Shown here one piece after another: positions 18,713 through 26,390 of a DNA stretch of 64,000 bases. Position 1 is the stretch's first letter, and each line of letters opens with the position of its first letter. The notes beneath the pieces are model-generated. The model made no database searches. It was not told the DNA's origin and saw only the letters and a list, made by a program, of their open reading frames with translations. This DNA comes from Escherichia phage vB_EcoM_phAPEC6: sequence record MK817115.1; one strand, given 5' to 3'. Both the position numbers and the translations under genes were made by a program.

Positions 18713-20599
18713 TTAGTTTTTTTTCACCCCACCCCATTTTTCATAGATTGCAATAATTTTATCTATGTTGTTTGGTGTAGTAGTTTCAGTATAACCATCT
18801 GGCATTTCTTGTTTAGTTAAAACGCCTTTACCAAATAGTTTTTTACATTCTTTTTCAGCTTCCTTACACTCAAACACAGATGTGAAAAAATACGTATGTA
18901 ACGATTCAATTTTAAATAATGATTTTTTATTTTGCTGCATAACCCTCTTACCTTTCTGCTTTTCAATACCATATTTCAATGCTACAGATAAATCACCATC
19001 CAAAATATTATGAATATATGCATATTGCTGAGAATGACCAGCCGCAAGTGGATGACCAGACCCACAAAGGTGACTTGCTGGAGTTTGCCAAAAGTCTCCA
19101 TACACTGGATGAGTTATTAATACTTTCGTTGAAGAATTTACATAATCAACTTTATCATAATTATATAAGTTATTATGAACTTCATTTGCTTTAATTTTAA
19201 ATTCATCACATGTATAAGGAACACCACCTTTGACTTTCGGGTGTCCTTTACCTGCCAAATGCCCATTTGGAGTTTGCCAAAAGTCTCCATACACTGGATG
19301 AGTTATTAATACTTTCGTTGAAGAATTTACATAATCAACTTTATCATAATTATATAAGTTATTATGAACTTCATTTGCTTTAATTTTAAATTGAGTTAGA
19401 TTTTTTATTTTAAAGTTAGCTGTATCATATTTCAAACTGTTTTTTAAATGTGTTAAGTGATTTTGTGGTGTACTTTTGAATTCTCCGTAAATTTTATGAA
19501 CTATAGTTACAGGTGTACTTTGATTTATATAGTTTACTCTATCATAGATATATTCTCCACTTGATTTGAACTCCAAGCACTTTTCTATAAATGTTTTAGT
19601 ATCTATATTTTTACAGTTTCCACAAGTTTTTAAATTTCTGTTCATTATAACGTCCACAGATATATCGTATTCACACCCACATGATTTATAACATACTTTA
19701 ATTTTCTTTTTTGTACCAACATCATCAGGTATTAGGATTGGTGTAATAAGTTGATTGTTAGGTGAACATTTGTAAAAATAATATAAAAAATTATTTTTTG
19801 TATAATGTGGTCTATGTACTATATTATTATTGATCAAATATGATGCTCTGGAAATACGATATAATACTCCTTCGTGTTCCGTTATTACAGGAGTTTTTTC
19901 ATTTTTCCATTCACTAAGAGATGATATTGCATATCCAATAATATTTTTACCAACCGACAATGCTTTTTCTTTCATTTTTTCGGCAAGACCGTAACCATGT
20001 TTTTTCATTTCCAATGGTGAAATCCACGAGAATGCAACATCATCCCCAAATATAAAATGGGAAATTGTAACACAATCATCATCAGTAGTCATGGATGTAT
20101 ATTCATTGTTATCTTCGATTTCTGATATTAATTCAGATTTACATTTAGAACAATTACAACCGATTTCATCACCCAGTGTAGAAATAGTAAGCGTTTTTTT
20201 AGTTCCATTTTTACAAATATATGGTATTTTTGTTGAATTATTTTTATAAACTTCAACTTCACCACTAACTGTATCAATTATGCCACCATAAGTACTAATC
20301 CAAGAATTAATTCTTTCCCTAACAATTAAAATATCTAAACTTTTAGCATGACCATTATACCAGTCTTCACATTCAGGACAACCAAATTTTTTAGATGGGT
20401 GTGTGAGGTTTGCGTGATCCATAAGATATACTTGTGATATGCCTGATTTGTGTTTTAATACATCATTGCAAACTACTTGGATGTTTTTTAATTTGGCATT
20501 TTCATACTTACTATAATCAGCTTCAATTGGAACGTTATGTTCTAATACTTTATTGTTGAATTTTTCTTTTGCTTGTTTAGGGGTTAATTTAGCTGGCAT
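18713..20599 (-). CDS. Cys-rich 628-aa protein with three tandem ~63-aa repeats
   Basis: Multiple CxxC pairs; repeat FKIKANEVHNNLYNYDKVDYVNSSTKVLITHPVYGDFWQTP occurs twice identically; AAAGGAG RBS. Confidence 0.7.
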   Translation of the reverse strand: MPAKLTPKQAKEKFNNKVLEHNVPIEADYSKYENAKLKNIQVVCNDVLKHKSGISQVYLMDHANLTHPSKKFGCPECEDWYNGHAKSLDILIVRERINSWISTYGGIIDTVSGEVEVYKNNSTKIPYICKNGTKKTLTISTLGDEIGCNCSKCKSELISEIEDNNEYTSMTTDDDCVTISHFIFGDDVAFSWISPLEMKKHGYGLAEKMKEKALSVGKNIIGYAISSLSEWKNEKTPVITEHEGVLYRISRASYLINNNIVHRPHYTKNNFLYYFYKCSPNNQLITPILIPDDVGTKKKIKVCYKSCGCEYDISVDVIMNRNLKTCGNCKNIDTKTFIEKCLEFKSSGEYIYDRVNYINQSTPVTIVHKIYGEFKSTPQNHLTHLKNSLKYDTANFKIKNLTQFKIKANEVHNNLYNYDKVDYVNSSTKVLITHPVYGDFWQTPNGHLAGKGHPKVKGGVPYTCDEFKIKANEVHNNLYNYDKVDYVNSSTKVLITHPVYGDFWQTPASHLCGSGHPLAAGHSQQYAYIHNILDGDLSVALKYGIEKQKGKRVMQQNKKSLFKIESLHTYFFTSVFECKEAEKECKKLFGKGVLTKQEMPDGYTETTTPNNIDKIIAIYEKWGGVKKN

Positions 20600-21316: not shown

Positions 21317-21751
21317 TTAGATCATAGAACGATAATACTCAGGTAACTCAACATCAGTAAATTTATACCACGTAGGCTTCATCTGGAGCTTCTCAATCAA
21401 ACGTTCACGAGACATTTTAATCTCTGACTCCGTTGGTATGTAGTCATTACAAAACTCAGCAGGGAAGCCGCTAATGTCGTTTACTTCAGTGTTTTGAATC
21501 TTCATACCACGACGCAGACATTCGTTGACAATATCAATATGACGCTTCTGTAAGTACAGTAACTTGTCGTAGAAAAATGTTACATGACCTGAACCTAACA
21601 GATAAGTACTGTTAATTTTGAAATCACGTACACGCTTACGTGCTTGAACGTGTTTTTGTACAGCACCAAATACACGTGGGAGTTCACGATATTCAGCCAT
21701 CAGATGTTGGTCAGCAAGTTCTTTAACGTGTACTAAGTTAATGCGTGTCAT
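21317..21751 (-). CDS. denV: Endonuclease V (pyrimidine-dimer DNA glycosylase), T4 DenV homologue
   Basis: [48 protein letters not shown] matches T4 DenV as I recall it; GAGAGGA RBS. Confidence 0.9.
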
Positions 21752-21774: not shown

Positions 21775-21814
21775 AAATGATTATAGCAAAAAGGGCCGAC
21801 TGAAGTCAACCCTT
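21775..21814 (-). promoter_or_regulatory. Composite terminator/early promoter element
   Basis: GGGCCGACTGAAGTCAACCC hairpin variant + T-run; GATTATAGC -10 region. Confidence 0.65.
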
Positions 21815-21907: not shown

Positions 21908-22243
21908 TTATTCAACAATCCCCAACTTCACAATCTCATACCCGTCCAGATAGCCGTAGGAACACTCAGGTGTTTCATAAGATGAACCATCATGGATGCC
22001 TTGGCATTGACTTTTGGAATTCTCAAGCAATCGTTGCAGTACTGATACGTCATCAAGAACGTAATACAAGTTAGCATATAGGTCAGTTACAATACAGTAC
22101 TCCAACATATCAAATGTATCAATCGAAATTTCAACCTTAGCAAATCGTTTCTTTTCTTTATTATACAGTGCGTACATATTAATCTCCATAATCAAGTTTA
22201 ACCAACTTACCACACAGATACCCAAAGTTTTCTGGCTTCGCAT
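21908..22243 (-). CDS. Hypothetical protein; possible C-terminal part of a split kinase-like gene
   Basis: 111-aa ORF overlapping the end of 22179..22550 in another frame. Confidence 0.4.
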   Translation of the reverse strand: MRSQKTLGICVVSWLNLIMEINMYALYNKEKKRFAKVEISIDTFDMLEYCIVTDLYANLYYVLDDVSVLQRLLENSKSQCQGIHDGSSYETPECSYGYLDGYEIVKLGIVE

Positions 22244-22550
22244 CTGAATAGAAGAAGTCAGTACTTAACTCTGAATTCAATGCTAAAGCACACAACTCCA
22301 CCCAAAATAAACCCCTATGTTGTACTGGCTTACAACGTTTCTGTACAGTTACTAGTCCAGTACATGATGACCACAAAGTAGGACAGATACCAGTATCACT
22401 ACGCTTGGAGTACTGCATCCACGAACGTTCATTGAGGTTAGCTATCATCCCTGTTAAGAATAGCTTCCAACTTTTAAAGGTTGGAATCTTGATAGCGTAT
22501 TCCCCAATGAGGATAACAGTTCGGGTTGCACCTTTCAAATCTATATTCAT
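22179..22550 (-). CDS. Protein kinase-like N-terminal fragment
   Basis: Gly-rich loop region then YAIK, catalytic-loop-like DAKPEN and DFG-like LDYGD; ORF stops right after. Confidence 0.5.
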   Translation of the reverse strand: MNIDLKGATRTVILIGEYAIKIPTFKSWKLFLTGMIANLNERSWMQYSKRSDTGICPTLWSSCTGLVTVQKRCKPVQHRGLFWVELCALALNSELSTDFFYSDAKPENFGYLCGKLVKLDYGD

Positions 22551-23028: not shown

Positions 23029-23583
23029 TTATTTCAAAGAATCATAGTAAGCAGTGTCAAAGATTGGAGTCATAATAACATAGTCAATACGGTCAATGTA
23101 AGTTGAACTCCACATTTCTGGTTTGTCATAAAATTGACGTTCGCGTTCATTCATACGAGTCAGTACTTCTTCCAATTTACTACGTGAAGCCATCAATGTA
23201 TTACGCGATCCATAAGTGAAGTACTCAGTCCATTGATATTCATATTCAGTACTGATAGATTGAATAGTACCATCTTTGAAATGAGCTAATGCATAACCTT
23301 TCTCTACAAAGTTATCAGGTGGAAGAACACCATCTGGATTAGTTTTCAATGCTTTTTCTAACTTTTCTTTAATTTCAGTTAACGTGCATACTGAACGAAT
23401 GTTCTTCAGGTTTGATACTTGAAAATCACTGTACTTTCCAAAGAAAAATACACGCCAATCTTTAGGTTCATTATCAGATACGGTAACATCAGGATGATGG
23501 GCGAGTAAACGAAGAAGGCCAGCTTTGTGACCGTTAATGTAGATTTCATGGATGTGGTTAGCAGTTTTCTTAAAAGTAATCAT
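23029..23583 (-). CDS. Hypothetical protein
   Basis: 184-aa ORF downstream of promoter 23631-23659. Confidence 0.6.
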   Translation of the reverse strand: MITFKKTANHIHEIYINGHKAGLLRLLAHHPDVTVSDNEPKDWRVFFFGKYSDFQVSNLKNIRSVCTLTEIKEKLEKALKTNPDGVLPPDNFVEKGYALAHFKDGTIQSISTEYEYQWTEYFTYGSRNTLMASRSKLEEVLTRMNERERQFYDKPEMWSSTYIDRIDYVIMTPIFDTAYYDSLK

Positions 23584-23659: not shown

Positions 23660-24055
23660 TCAAAATAAATTCATTTCATGTGCGTATTGTGGTTCAAGAT
23701 AAGATAAGTTTTTGAAACTGTCTTTCAATTCCGCATCATCTACGTACACAGTACCAGGTACATTCCCCATAGTGAAGCCAACCCAAACAGTCATGTTTCC
23801 AGTTCCTAAGCGGGGCATTGATAGCGTCCCGTCAGGTGAAACATCAAACGCTACACTAAAGTCATCCGTTACAACTTCCGAACCATTTTCCAGAATAATA
23901 CAACCACGTTCTTTAAGCTTCTGAATGTGGATAGCAGCCTCTACTGCACGTTTAAAGTTATAATAAGACTCTTTATCCTCGAACATTGATTGTTTAACCA
24001 GACGCTTGTTTAGCTCGGTTACTTTGTGCATTTGACGCATTACTTCAACTCCCAC
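23660..24055 (-). CDS. Hypothetical protein
   Basis: 131-aa ORF. Confidence 0.55.
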   Translation of the reverse strand: MGVEVMRQMHKVTELNKRLVKQSMFEDKESYYNFKRAVEAAIHIQKLKERGCIILENGSEVVTDDFSVAFDVSPDGTLSMPRLGTGNMTVWVGFTMGNVPGTVYVDDAELKDSFKNLSYLEPQYAHEMNLF

Positions 24056-24294
24056 AGTTGTAGAATTTCATAAGAGCCTGGTGGTGCTGGATTGATAATC
24101 TCAGGGTATTCAGTACTGTTAGGATTACCACCAGCATTGAACTCAGCAAGTAATAATTCGAGTTCATTCCTATCATGTACAACAAACACGCAATATCCAG
24201 TTCCTTCTTCAAGAACTGTAGTTGATCCCGCACAATCCCATACGGCATCAATACATAATAATTCTTTAGTGTTTTTATTACGCAACGCAAACAT
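24040..24294 (-). CDS. Hypothetical protein
   Basis: 84 aa; AGGAG RBS; preferred over the overlapping 24045..24347 frame. Confidence 0.5.
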   Translation of the reverse strand: MFALRNKNTKELLCIDAVWDCAGSTTVLEEGTGYCVFVVHDRNELELLLAEFNAGGNPNSTEYPEIINPAPPGSYEILQLWELK

Positions 24295-24303
24295 ATATGT
24301 CTC

Positions 24304-24648
24304 CTATCGATTCGGCATATTCTTTCGTAGTCGCAAGAGAAATTCAACCACTGACCATGTTGTAATGAAGGCTATATAAGTTGCAAGGAATCCAGTAAGA
24401 ATAAATGCAACCAGCGTACTACCATTTGGGGAATCAGTTTTAATGCCGATGACACCATCGGCTACAGTGAAACATGTAGCCATTAATGTGTAACCTACGT
24501 ACAACACAAAGAAAAACTCATTCTCCATTGAAGGATAGAAACGGTTAAACACTTTATAAAATTTAAAGTACAGTAGGATTATACCAACAAAGGCATAGAA
24601 TGTAAACAGTGTTGTTATAATATATGAGATTAGGTTCAAATTATACAT
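24304..24648 (-). CDS. Small multi-pass membrane protein (second cluster of the family)
   Basis: Start set to ATG 24648 (GGAG RBS); hydrophobic; tail LRKNMPNR. Confidence 0.55.
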   Translation of the reverse strand: MYNLNLISYIITTLFTFYAFVGIILLYFKFYKVFNRFYPSMENEFFFVLYVGYTLMATCFTVADGVIGIKTDSPNGSTLVAFILTGFLATYIAFITTWSVVEFLLRLRKNMPNR

Positions 24649-24649
24649 A

Positions 24650-24997
24650 TCAACGCTCCGGTAGATTATCACGTAATGTTTTAATTCGATGATACATTTT
24701 CATACCAATATTACCAAAGATACCATATCCAAGTACTAAAATGTATGCAATAAGCATAGTAATAATTACTATAGTGCCAAAACTATAATGTACACTACTG
24801 ATACCCATTGTAGTTTCAACGATTATTTGAGAAACTGAAAGAATCAAAAGTACAACTACAATTGGATGATTTGGGTACATTCGGTTGAACAACGTTTTGT
24901 ACTTAAAGAAGCACAGTACTCCACCGAATAAGAAGTAAACAATGTAAATGCAAGCAACAGCATAGGCAAACATGTTAGTGTAATAAATCATTACCAA
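24650..24997 (-). CDS. Small multi-pass membrane protein (second cluster of the family)
   Basis: 115 aa hydrophobic; tail LRDNLPER. Confidence 0.6.
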   Translation of the reverse strand: MVMIYYTNMFAYAVACIYIVYFLFGGVLCFFKYKTLFNRMYPNHPIVVVLLILSVSQIIVETTMGISSVHYSFGTIVIITMLIAYILVLGYGIFGNIGMKMYHRIKTLRDNLPER

Positions 24998-25000
24998 TCC

Positions 25001-25339
25001 TTACTTTTCAGGGATATTAGAACGCCATATATCAATGCGATGAACTAGTCCAAAGAACAACCATACTGGAACGGCAGCTATCATAACAACAAATGAAAAC
25101 CCAGTCAAGACCGATACCAGATTTAATTCATCAGTACTATACCCACATATCAGTACTTCTAATATTCCCCACGTACATGCACAAAACATCAAGAATGAAA
25201 TTGGGGCATCATAGTAGATACGTTCATATAAAGTAGTGTATCGGAAGAATGCAATAATGTAGCAAAACATATAATACACCCAAACCAAAGATACTACATA
25301 AAATGATACTTTGTTTATTAATTCAAAATATTGTTCCAT
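25001..25339 (-). CDS. Small multi-pass membrane protein (second cluster of the family)
   Basis: 112 aa hydrophobic; tail WRSNIPEK. Confidence 0.6.
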   Translation of the reverse strand: MEQYFELINKVSFYVVSLVWVYYMFCYIIAFFRYTTLYERIYYDAPISFLMFCACTWGILEVLICGYSTDELNLVSVLTGFSFVVMIAAVPVWLFFGLVHRIDIWRSNIPEK

Positions 25340-25684: not shown

Positions 25685-26326
25685 TCAATAAAAAACTGGA
25701 TCTTCTTCAGTAACTGGTATTTCTCTACGTACATCACACGAAAGAGGATCAGTAATGAATACATTGCCATCTTTATCCATCATGACATTACTGGAATGAA
25801 TGTCTGGTACAAAACGCCCGTGAAACTCTTTCATGATGTTAGCAGCGACCGTCGCAATAGCAATCTCTTCAGAATTACCACGCATATCATTCACTGAAGT
25901 AGCGTACTGACCAGCATGTGCATAAGAATATAAATCTCCAATTTTAGTACTAACAAAGTCATCATAATTATTTTTTTGTTTAATTATAGGATAGTACTTG
26001 TCCATCTCATACCATCCAAAGTTTCCTTGTTCGTTTGCACTGTAGATCACTGGAAGAAACTTGGTTCCTGCGTTTTCAATGCAGTACTTTGCATAAGCAC
26101 GAAAACCATCCCAGCGTGAAGTGGTTACTTTAAATGCACGTCCAGGATAGTTTTTATGTTCAACTACTACAGAGTACATCCCCATTCCAAGCAAAGTAAG
26201 TCCAGCAGCTTTAACTTGTGGAAAGATTACGCGTTCAGCATAAGGAATATCAAACTCCATCGCACAACGAGTTTTTGATGGACGCAAAATGTCAATTAAA
26301 GTTTTGAATATTTCTTGCTTAGTCAT
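25685..26326 (-). CDS. Putative atypical kinase-like protein
   Basis: Start set to ATG 26326 (GAGGA RBS); LLGMGMYSVVV, AFK, then DIHSSNVMMDKDGNVFITD resembling a kinase catalytic loop plus DFG-like segment; weak. Confidence 0.4.
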   Translation of the reverse strand: MTKQEIFKTLIDILRPSKTRCAMEFDIPYAERVIFPQVKAAGLTLLGMGMYSVVVEHKNYPGRAFKVTTSRWDGFRAYAKYCIENAGTKFLPVIYSANEQGNFGWYEMDKYYPIIKQKNNYDDFVSTKIGDLYSYAHAGQYATSVNDMRGNSEEIAIATVAANIMKEFHGRFVPDIHSSNVMMDKDGNVFITDPLSCDVRREIPVTEEDPVFY

Positions 26327-26354
26327 TACTTTATCCTCTGTAGTTAATATCAAC

Positions 26355-26390
26355 ATCATAACAAAAAAGGCTGACCGAAGTCAACCCTTT
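26355..26390 (-). promoter_or_regulatory. Composite terminator/early promoter element
   Basis: GGCTGACCGAAGTCAACC hairpin + T-run with embedded TTGACT and TATGAT -10. Confidence 0.65.

Follow-up and report, generated by a model that had tools for sequence, protein, structure and literature searches.

The window analysed here is a 64,000-nt stretch of the genome of Escherichia phage vB_EcoM_phAPEC6 (record MK817115.1). Between positions 21,908 and 22,550 its minus strand carries two short genes. ORF A (22179–22550) is complete, encodes 123 residues and ends in a TAA stop codon at 22181–22179; ORF B (21908–22177) is a separate gene of 89 residues. They correspond, respectively, to PSLUR01_00122 and PSLUR01_00123 of Escherichia phage vB_Eco_slurp01, a 348-kb jumbo phage (Asteriusvirus), and belong to PHROG 4301 and PHROG 8563. 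The 2.3 kb around 22179–22550 is 100% identical to slurp01; its identity to some 35 related genomes, among them those of 121Q, PBECO4 and G17, is 91–99%. Read from the sequence, ORF A contains the motif YAIK at residues 18–21 and closes with LDYGD (residues 119–123), directly followed by the TAA.

The two genes lie in different reading frames. A single nucleotide separates the stop codon of ORF A from the supported start of ORF B, the ATG at 22177–22175, which is preceded at a spacing of six nucleotides by a GGAG Shine–Dalgarno sequence (22187–22184, minus strand, by sequence reading) located within the last codons of ORF A. The longest-ORF rule alone yields instead a 111-residue ORF (21908–22243) that overlaps ORF A by 65 nt and whose ATG (22243–22241) falls in the D103–A104 codons of ORF A; on sequence grounds, this overlap is an artefact of the rule. 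The GenBank CDSs in slurp01 and 121Q are genes of 372 and 270 nt, 1 nt apart, with ORF B starting at 22177, and the junction in 121Q is identical to that described here. Three of the four clusters of ORF B homologues (P0162–P0164) start with MYALYNK, fitting the ATG at 22177, while the remaining database cluster starts at the ATG at 22189, which would mean an 11-nt overlap.

ORF A and ORF B are the final two genes of a minus-strand run and belong to a five-gene unit extending from 23583 to 21908. The unit is closed, after ORF B, by a terminator-like hairpin with a T run (21788–21812, minus strand; stem 21793–21812), for which the RNA fold has an energy of −17.3 kcal/mol (z −4.67; as good in 0 of 200 shuffles). 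The annotation of phage G17 has a terminator at the same place. A candidate promoter, TTGACA-16-TATAAT (23658–23631, minus strand), matches the sigma-70 consensus at 12 of 12 positions and lies upstream of the 184-residue ORF 23029–23583; it is possibly the promoter of the five-gene unit, being a match to the consensus only in a region where promoter-like sites do not exceed shuffle expectation.

Directly downstream of this unit lies a homologue of denV, the gene for T4 endonuclease V, a pyrimidine dimer DNA glycosylase (21317–21751, minus strand). It has a promoter-like sequence of its own (TTGACT-18-TATAAT, 11 of 12 consensus positions; 21809–21780, minus strand), the −35 element of which overlaps the terminator hairpin.

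Evidence for two separate genes

A first-pass annotation of this DNA had described an ORF with kinase motifs at 22179–22550, overlapped by 65 nt in a different frame by an ORF at 21908–22243, and had proposed either one kinase gene inactivated or regulated by a frameshift or an unusually truncated kinase-like protein. The kinase motifs and the difference in frame are confirmed; the overlap is not, as it arises from a spurious start. A kinase-like ORF that stops after its DFG motif beside an overlapping ORF in another frame is, on a raw look at the sequence, what an interrupted kinase gene would look like, whether through pseudogene formation, sequencing error or programmed frameshifting that fuses ORF A and ORF B. 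The wider family of ORF A argues strongly against this.

ORF A matches phrog_4301 with an E-value of 9e-43, its residues 2–122 aligning with profile positions 40–167. Homologues down to 45% identity form 15 clusters, 14 of which have 118–127 residues and end K-L-D-Y-G-x; the fifteenth is a 102-residue entry covering half of ORF A. A profile search run exhaustively over 1.84 billion representatives returned 1212 cluster representatives with E ≤ 1e-3; at E ≤ 1e-10 there are 639. The 1212 have a median length of 123 residues (5th–95th percentile 112–153), and the end of the profile is almost always the end of the protein. In an alignment of 155 diverse homologues, the chains of 122 run on for no more than four residues past the DFG-type aspartate. 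The same stop position is thus found across 1212 cluster representatives and 117 phage genomes, and homologues of about 120 residues occur everywhere that the family does.

ORF B has a different history. It matches phrog_8563 end to end, and its relatives are all close ones (at least 86% identical) from Asteriusviruses. None of the other loci examined has an ORF B homologue within 4–5 kb of its ORF A homologue, and ORF B is absent beside ORF A in 27 other lineages. The divergent Asteriusvirus EJP2 is informative in this respect: its ORF A homologue is 66% identical and ends KLDYGD-stop, and 1 nt further on an unrelated 62-residue ORF starts in the place of ORF B. No fused relatives of ORF A carrying ORF B-like sequence were found, and the longer variants of ORF A have unrelated C-terminal tails (Kc263, 267 residues; OBP, 273; RP12, 209). 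ORF B itself lacks a kinase C-lobe motif, has no match in Pfam or the PDB, and gives a beta-rich structure model of low confidence (pLDDT 56). ORF B also has its own Shine–Dalgarno sequence and a start 1 nt past the stop of ORF A. More than 30 independent Asteriusvirus assemblies have the same arrangement of the two genes. When each gene is compared in its own frame between slurp01 and 121Q, synonymous change exceeds non-synonymous change in both, with dN/dS values, drawn from few sites, of 0.22 for ORF A and 0.13 for ORF B.

Taken with the family length, the restricted range of ORF B and the case of EJP2, a frameshift or fusion joining ORF A and ORF B is refuted by sequence comparison, and an interrupted kinase gene is an extremely improbable explanation of the locus. 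ORF A and ORF B are almost certainly separate, independent and tightly packed phage genes. The proposed fusion fails because the downstream ORF matches a PHROG of its own along its whole length, and the proposed frameshift because ORF A is a short gene throughout its family and ORF B a separate one confined to Asteriusviruses. For genome annotation, this means that where a truncated kinase seems to be overlapped by another ORF, the cause may be a small gene that is genuine and not a frameshift. A ‘split kinase’, in which a C-lobe partner is encoded next door, was also considered and is not supported, as no recurrent partner emerged when the ORFs surrounding 52 loci (to a distance of 3.5 kb, in 28 lineages) were compared.

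A further ORF in the region, 24040–24294 (minus strand, 84 residues), shows a weak full-length match to ORF B (27% identity, pairwise E 0.009). Both proteins start M-[YF]-A-L-x-N-K and end Y-E-I-x-x-L, and the two are apparently distant paralogues over their full length.

Predicted fold and conserved residues of ORF A

At the level of sequence, ORF A is not readily connected to known kinases. It has no match in Pfam, NCBIfam or PADLOC, and none among PDB sequences by phmmer or by hmmsearch with profiles built from 15 and 63 sequences. Matches to ABC1 were seen only in relatives of ORF A, all of them below threshold. ORF A thus gave no significant profile match to a curated kinase family of the kind by which membership of the PKL superfamily is assigned. 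Without such a sequence-profile link, its assignment as a kinase depends on predicted structure together with the pattern of motifs.

An AlphaFold2 model computed with the family alignment has a pLDDT of 90 and a pTM of 0.79. The order of its elements is beta1–beta3, a long helix (residues 28–43), beta4–beta5, a helix at residues 79–92, a short helix and two final strands. In a Foldseek search of the PDB with this model, the best 50 of 1802 matches are protein kinases or kinase-like enzymes; Lpg2603, TTK, WbdD and CDK2 are among the best. In BFVD, which holds predicted structures of viral proteins, the top matches are small phage proteins of 117–273 residues (TM up to 0.86), including one from Ralstonia phage RP12 that UniProt names ‘Protein kinase domain-containing protein’, and the Ser/Thr kinases of giant viruses rank after them. 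The first-pass annotation had held that its kinase proposal should fall if 22179–22550 gave no kinase-fold hit; the fold search did find kinase-fold matches. The model contains the elements of the PKL superfamily fold, namely a beta-rich N-lobe with alphaC, then alphaE, the catalytic loop and a hairpin with the metal-binding aspartate. It is therefore very likely, on the basis of this prediction, that ORF A has a kinase-like fold.

Conservation among the 155 aligned members agrees with the model. K21 of YAIK (22488–22490, minus strand), in model strand 18–23, corresponds to the ‘VAIK’ lysine of beta3, and E41 (22428–22430, minus strand), in model helix 28–43, to the alphaC glutamate; both are invariant (155/155). 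G34 (153/155) and N38 (152/155) lie on the same helix face as E41. The DFG equivalent is D120-Y-G122 (22185–22193, minus strand), followed by D123 and the stop; D120 is likewise invariant (155/155), while Y121 is kept in 142 members and G122 in 137. The three residues that mark the PKL superfamily, the beta3 lysine, the alphaC glutamate and the DFG aspartate, are thus all present in ORF A. The motifs YAIK, DAKPEN and LDYGD, noted earlier as preceding the stop, are accordingly real features of the protein, the invariance of K21, E41 and D120 in 155 of 155 members being more than chance. Conservation of about 99% is seen at G7, R10, P23, G34, N38 and G110.

The catalytic-loop equivalent, D103-A-K-P-E-N108 (22227–22244, minus strand), resembles HRDLKPEN. 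It occurs in two co-varying versions, D-x-K-x-x-N in 81 of the 155 members and E-x-K-x-x-S in 45, with few mixed forms; position 103 is acidic in 154, and K105 is found in 134. To judge from this co-variation, the loop looks like a maintained active site and not a decaying one. An hhalign alignment of ORF A with CDK2, the score of which is not significant, places D103, K105 and N108 on D127, K129 and N132, and D120 and G122 on D145 and G147.

Two features depart from the usual pattern. The canonical glycine loop, G-x-G-x-x-G, is not found; its equivalent in ORF A is G-A-T-R-T-V (residues 7–12; 22515–22532, minus strand), which lies between beta1 and beta2, modelled as strands 2–4 and 10–15. 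The family consensus here is G-x-T-R-x-V, with G7 in 153 of 155 members, T9 in 130 (serine in 16), R10 in 153 and V12 in 145. Hanks subdomains VIII–XI, comprising the activation segment with APE, alphaF and alphaH–I, are missing, since the chain ends at D123. From the predicted structure and the pattern of motifs and conservation, we conclude that ORF A has the kinase-like fold and the active-site layout of subdomains I–VII and nothing beyond. Of the two explanations first offered for the locus, an unusually truncated kinase-like protein is thus borne out by the matches of the fold search and by the invariance of the catalytic residues, and it is a more general phenomenon than could be seen from one genome.

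Distribution and genomic surroundings of the ORF A family

Members of the ORF A family were found in 117 phage genome records. They are carried by Asteriusviruses, by T4-like phages, including BASEL phage Bas45 (PaulHMueller; gene bas45_0262), by jumbo phages of Aeromonas, Erwinia, Klebsiella, Ralstonia and Pseudomonas, and by Pseudomonas siphoviruses of about 58 kb. PHROG 4301 also includes a homologue from a Salmonella prophage and a sister clade from Pseudomonas phages represented by a 142-residue protein. It has no functional annotation, and a literature search, with most subscription journals outside its reach, found no published description of the family. A few GenBank annotators have labelled individual homologues ‘serine/threonine kinase’, namely those of Kc263, AH04, PAKlein3 and pEa_SNUABM_5.

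The surroundings of these genes are heterogeneous. In Bas45 the homologue has ipI on one side and the tRNA cluster on the other; in the Salmonella lambdoid prophage it is isolated between Rz and Nu1; and in other loci it is found among small genes of unknown function. Genes with sponge domains, Tad2-like or of the Acb2/Tad1 type, lie 0.7–1.5 kb away from two members. When all ORFs within 3.5 kb of ORF A homologues were clustered (52 loci, 28 lineages), no neighbour family recurred in more than four of the 28 lineages, and no partner gene emerged. The only recurrent neighbours were a mobile endonuclease in four lineages and the synteny common to three related jumbo phages. Judged by its varied positions and the lack of a fixed neighbour, ORF A behaves as a stand-alone mobile accessory gene.

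The 628-residue protein encoded at 18713–20599 (minus strand) contains an internal direct repeat of about 45 residues, with FKIKANEVHNNLYNYDKVDYVNSSTKVLITHPVYGDFWQTP occurring twice, and its relative in 121Q is annotated ‘endonuclease’. Proteins of this type are found near the ORF A homologue in four otherwise unrelated lineages, and a neighbour in locus L044 matches DUF723; the protein is probably a mobile homing-type endonuclease. On the other side of ORF A are three tandem ORFs of 112–122 residues (24304–24672, 24650–24997 and 25001–25339, minus strand), which share the motif F-x-[FY]-x-x-[LV]-[FY]-x-R-x-Y-P and a C-terminal R-x-N-[ILM]-P-[NE]-[RK]. They look like paralogous multi-pass membrane proteins.

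Some relatives of ORF A are longer. The sister clade within PHROG 4301 (loci L029–L040 and L053), from Pseudomonas and Xanthomonas siphoviruses and exemplified by PaMx11 gp73, has proteins of 142–205 residues with a more canonical glycine loop (GEGIHRKVF), the motifs SDLKPENFG and LDYA, and a basic tail of 20 residues. This clade bridges the short proteins of the ORF A type and ordinary kinases; in PaMx11, its member lies within a module of DNA ligase, NTP hydrolase and exonuclease genes. The variants from Kosakonia phage Kc263 (L048) and Pseudomonas phage OBP (L050), of 267–273 residues, keep the lysine, the glutamate and the aspartate of DYG, and then continue in a tail of about 130 residues. 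Their catalytic-loop Asp-x-Lys is degenerate (EHVPKN and EYIPSN), and neither the tails nor the full-length proteins have a Pfam match. They are possibly pseudokinase derivatives.

Possible activity and role of ORF A

Kinase cores shorter than the classical domain are known to function. OspG and NleH are active although they lack subdomains VIII–XI; OspG owes its activation to a partner in the host (PMC12756638). A kinase core without subdomains VIII–XI, as defined for this type (PMC12756638), is also what is seen in ORF A. Sequence and profile searches, including those of PDB sequences, reveal no relationship between ORF A and OspG, NleH or HopBF1, and the solved minimal kinase chains of the OspG, NleH1/2 and HopBF1 type have 169–176 residues, in contrast to 123 in ORF A, which has no residues left for a helix after its DFG equivalent. 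The OspG, NleH and HopBF1 effector kinases keep helices after the DFG motif. OspG and NleH are, moreover, effectors secreted into eukaryotic cells, whereas ORF A is a phage gene acting inside bacteria. The atypical kinases RIO, Bud32 and archaeal Ark1, at 170–270 residues, also differ from ORF A in retaining C-lobe helices, and no sequence-profile match links ORF A to them in Pfam or the PDB.

The predicted architecture suggests how such a protein might work. A five-stranded N-lobe sheet would carry the G-x-T-R-x-V phosphate loop and K21 paired with E41; a short hinge, a single alphaE-like helix and the catalytic loop D103-x-K105-x-x-N108 would follow, and two strands would lead to the metal-binding aspartate of D120-Y-G, where the chain ends, with the activation segment, the APE motif and helices alphaF–alphaI all missing. 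ATP–Mg may be held between the sheet and the catalytic loop through the K21–E41 pair, N108 and D120, and the gamma-phosphate may be passed to a substrate via D103. Since the active site would be fully exposed, the enzyme may be constitutively open and promiscuous, or else self-association or a host partner may complete it. According to the spine model of Kornev and Taylor, it is the alphaF helix that holds the catalytic loop and the two hydrophobic spines in place in eukaryotic-type kinases. The chain of ORF A ends three residues after its DFG aspartate, without a scaffold of the alphaF type, so catalysis may need a partner or be absent.

Our preferred reading, held with modest confidence, is that ORF A would act as a stand-alone minimal kinase-like phosphotransferase and an accessory factor for manipulation of the host; that it is catalytically active is, on the modelled active site, somewhat favoured. 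Its role may lie in host take-over or counter-defence, which would fit a mobile accessory gene and for which an analogy is provided by T7 kinase, a hyperactive, promiscuous enzyme that disarms bacterial defences (PMC13645617, Nature 2026). The heterogeneous genome contexts make the biological role a guess, and a protein substrate, an anti-defence role or both are suggested only tentatively.

Some features of the family would also fit a protein that binds ATP, another nucleotide or a host protein without phosphotransfer, acting as a pseudokinase, sponge or regulator through sequestration or allostery. There is nothing after the DFG motif, and the glycine loop (G-x-T-R) is atypical, which counts against a kinase reading in general. 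About a third of members have glutamate for the catalytic aspartate and serine for the metal-binding asparagine, changes that are unusual for active kinases; and the two members near sponge-domain genes lie in regions rich in small binder proteins. However, the residues kept (K21, E41 and D120, an acidic residue at 103, and K105) are those needed for catalysis and not just for binding, and the change from D and N to E and S in the catalytic loop is coordinated, not random. A non-catalytic role is therefore rather unlikely. Equally unlikely is that ORF A is a kinase of small molecules or nucleic acids, its substrate being a nucleotide, a signalling molecule, a tRNA or the end of a polynucleotide and not a protein. 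The known small-molecule kinases of kinase fold hold their substrate in a large C-lobe, which ORF A lacks; ORF A carries D-x-K-x-x-N, the signature of Ser/Thr protein kinases; and no conserved neighbour hints at a pathway.

A phosphotransferase of this size would have wider consequences. If ORF A is active, the smallest size known for the protein-kinase fold would drop to subdomains I–VII alone, in about 120 residues, and the protein would show what phosphotransfer truly requires, with a bearing on kinase evolution and on enzyme design. The phage toolkit would also be enlarged by a second kinase family, unrelated in sequence to the first, soon after the report of the anti-defence activity of T7 kinase. 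A bolder and more doubtful proposal is that these proteins of about 120 residues are autonomous active kinases, the smallest kinase-fold enzymes known, and form a widespread class of phage effectors that phosphorylate host proteins. Were this so, kinases could work without the alphaF scaffold and the activation segment, both held to be essential. With at least 1200 sequence clusters, the class would span T4-like, jumbo, siphovirus and lambdoid phages, would serve take-over or the disarming of defences, and would be parallel to, and independent of, T7 kinase. As the family is large, is without curated annotation and occurs in tractable model phages such as Bas45, these proposals are directly testable.

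T7 kinase (T7K) remains the best functional analogy for ORF A, being likewise phage-encoded and having a kinase domain (residues 1–242) that ends soon after its DFG equivalent, DPV at 213–215. It differs from ORF A in that its N-terminus is extended by 70 residues and a long insert precedes its catalytic loop, and its motifs are D-x-H-x-G-N and DPV where those of ORF A are D-x-K-x-x-N and DYG. The two belong to different PHROGs, and comparison of ORF A with T7K (PHROG 2828, PF27024) gave no match by phmmer or hmmsearch and a probability of 0.1–0.5% by hhalign. The jumbo phages Munch and G17 have been reported to carry distant homologues of T7K without its shut-off domain (PMC13645617). ORF A was considered as this jumbophage homologue and rejected, as it has no profile similarity and the gene in question lies elsewhere in the window, at 25685–26359 (minus strand). 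That gene encodes a 224-residue homologue of T7 gp0.7 (phmmer E 1.1e-9) with the motifs GMGMYS, FKV, DIHSSN and DPL; the protein ends 21 residues past DPL, without a shut-off domain, and Pfam PF27024 is found in its homologues. The gene is evidently the ‘jumbophage T7K homologue’ described for G17 and Munch (PMC13645617). The phage thus carries two unrelated kinase-like genes on the same strand, 3.2 kb apart.
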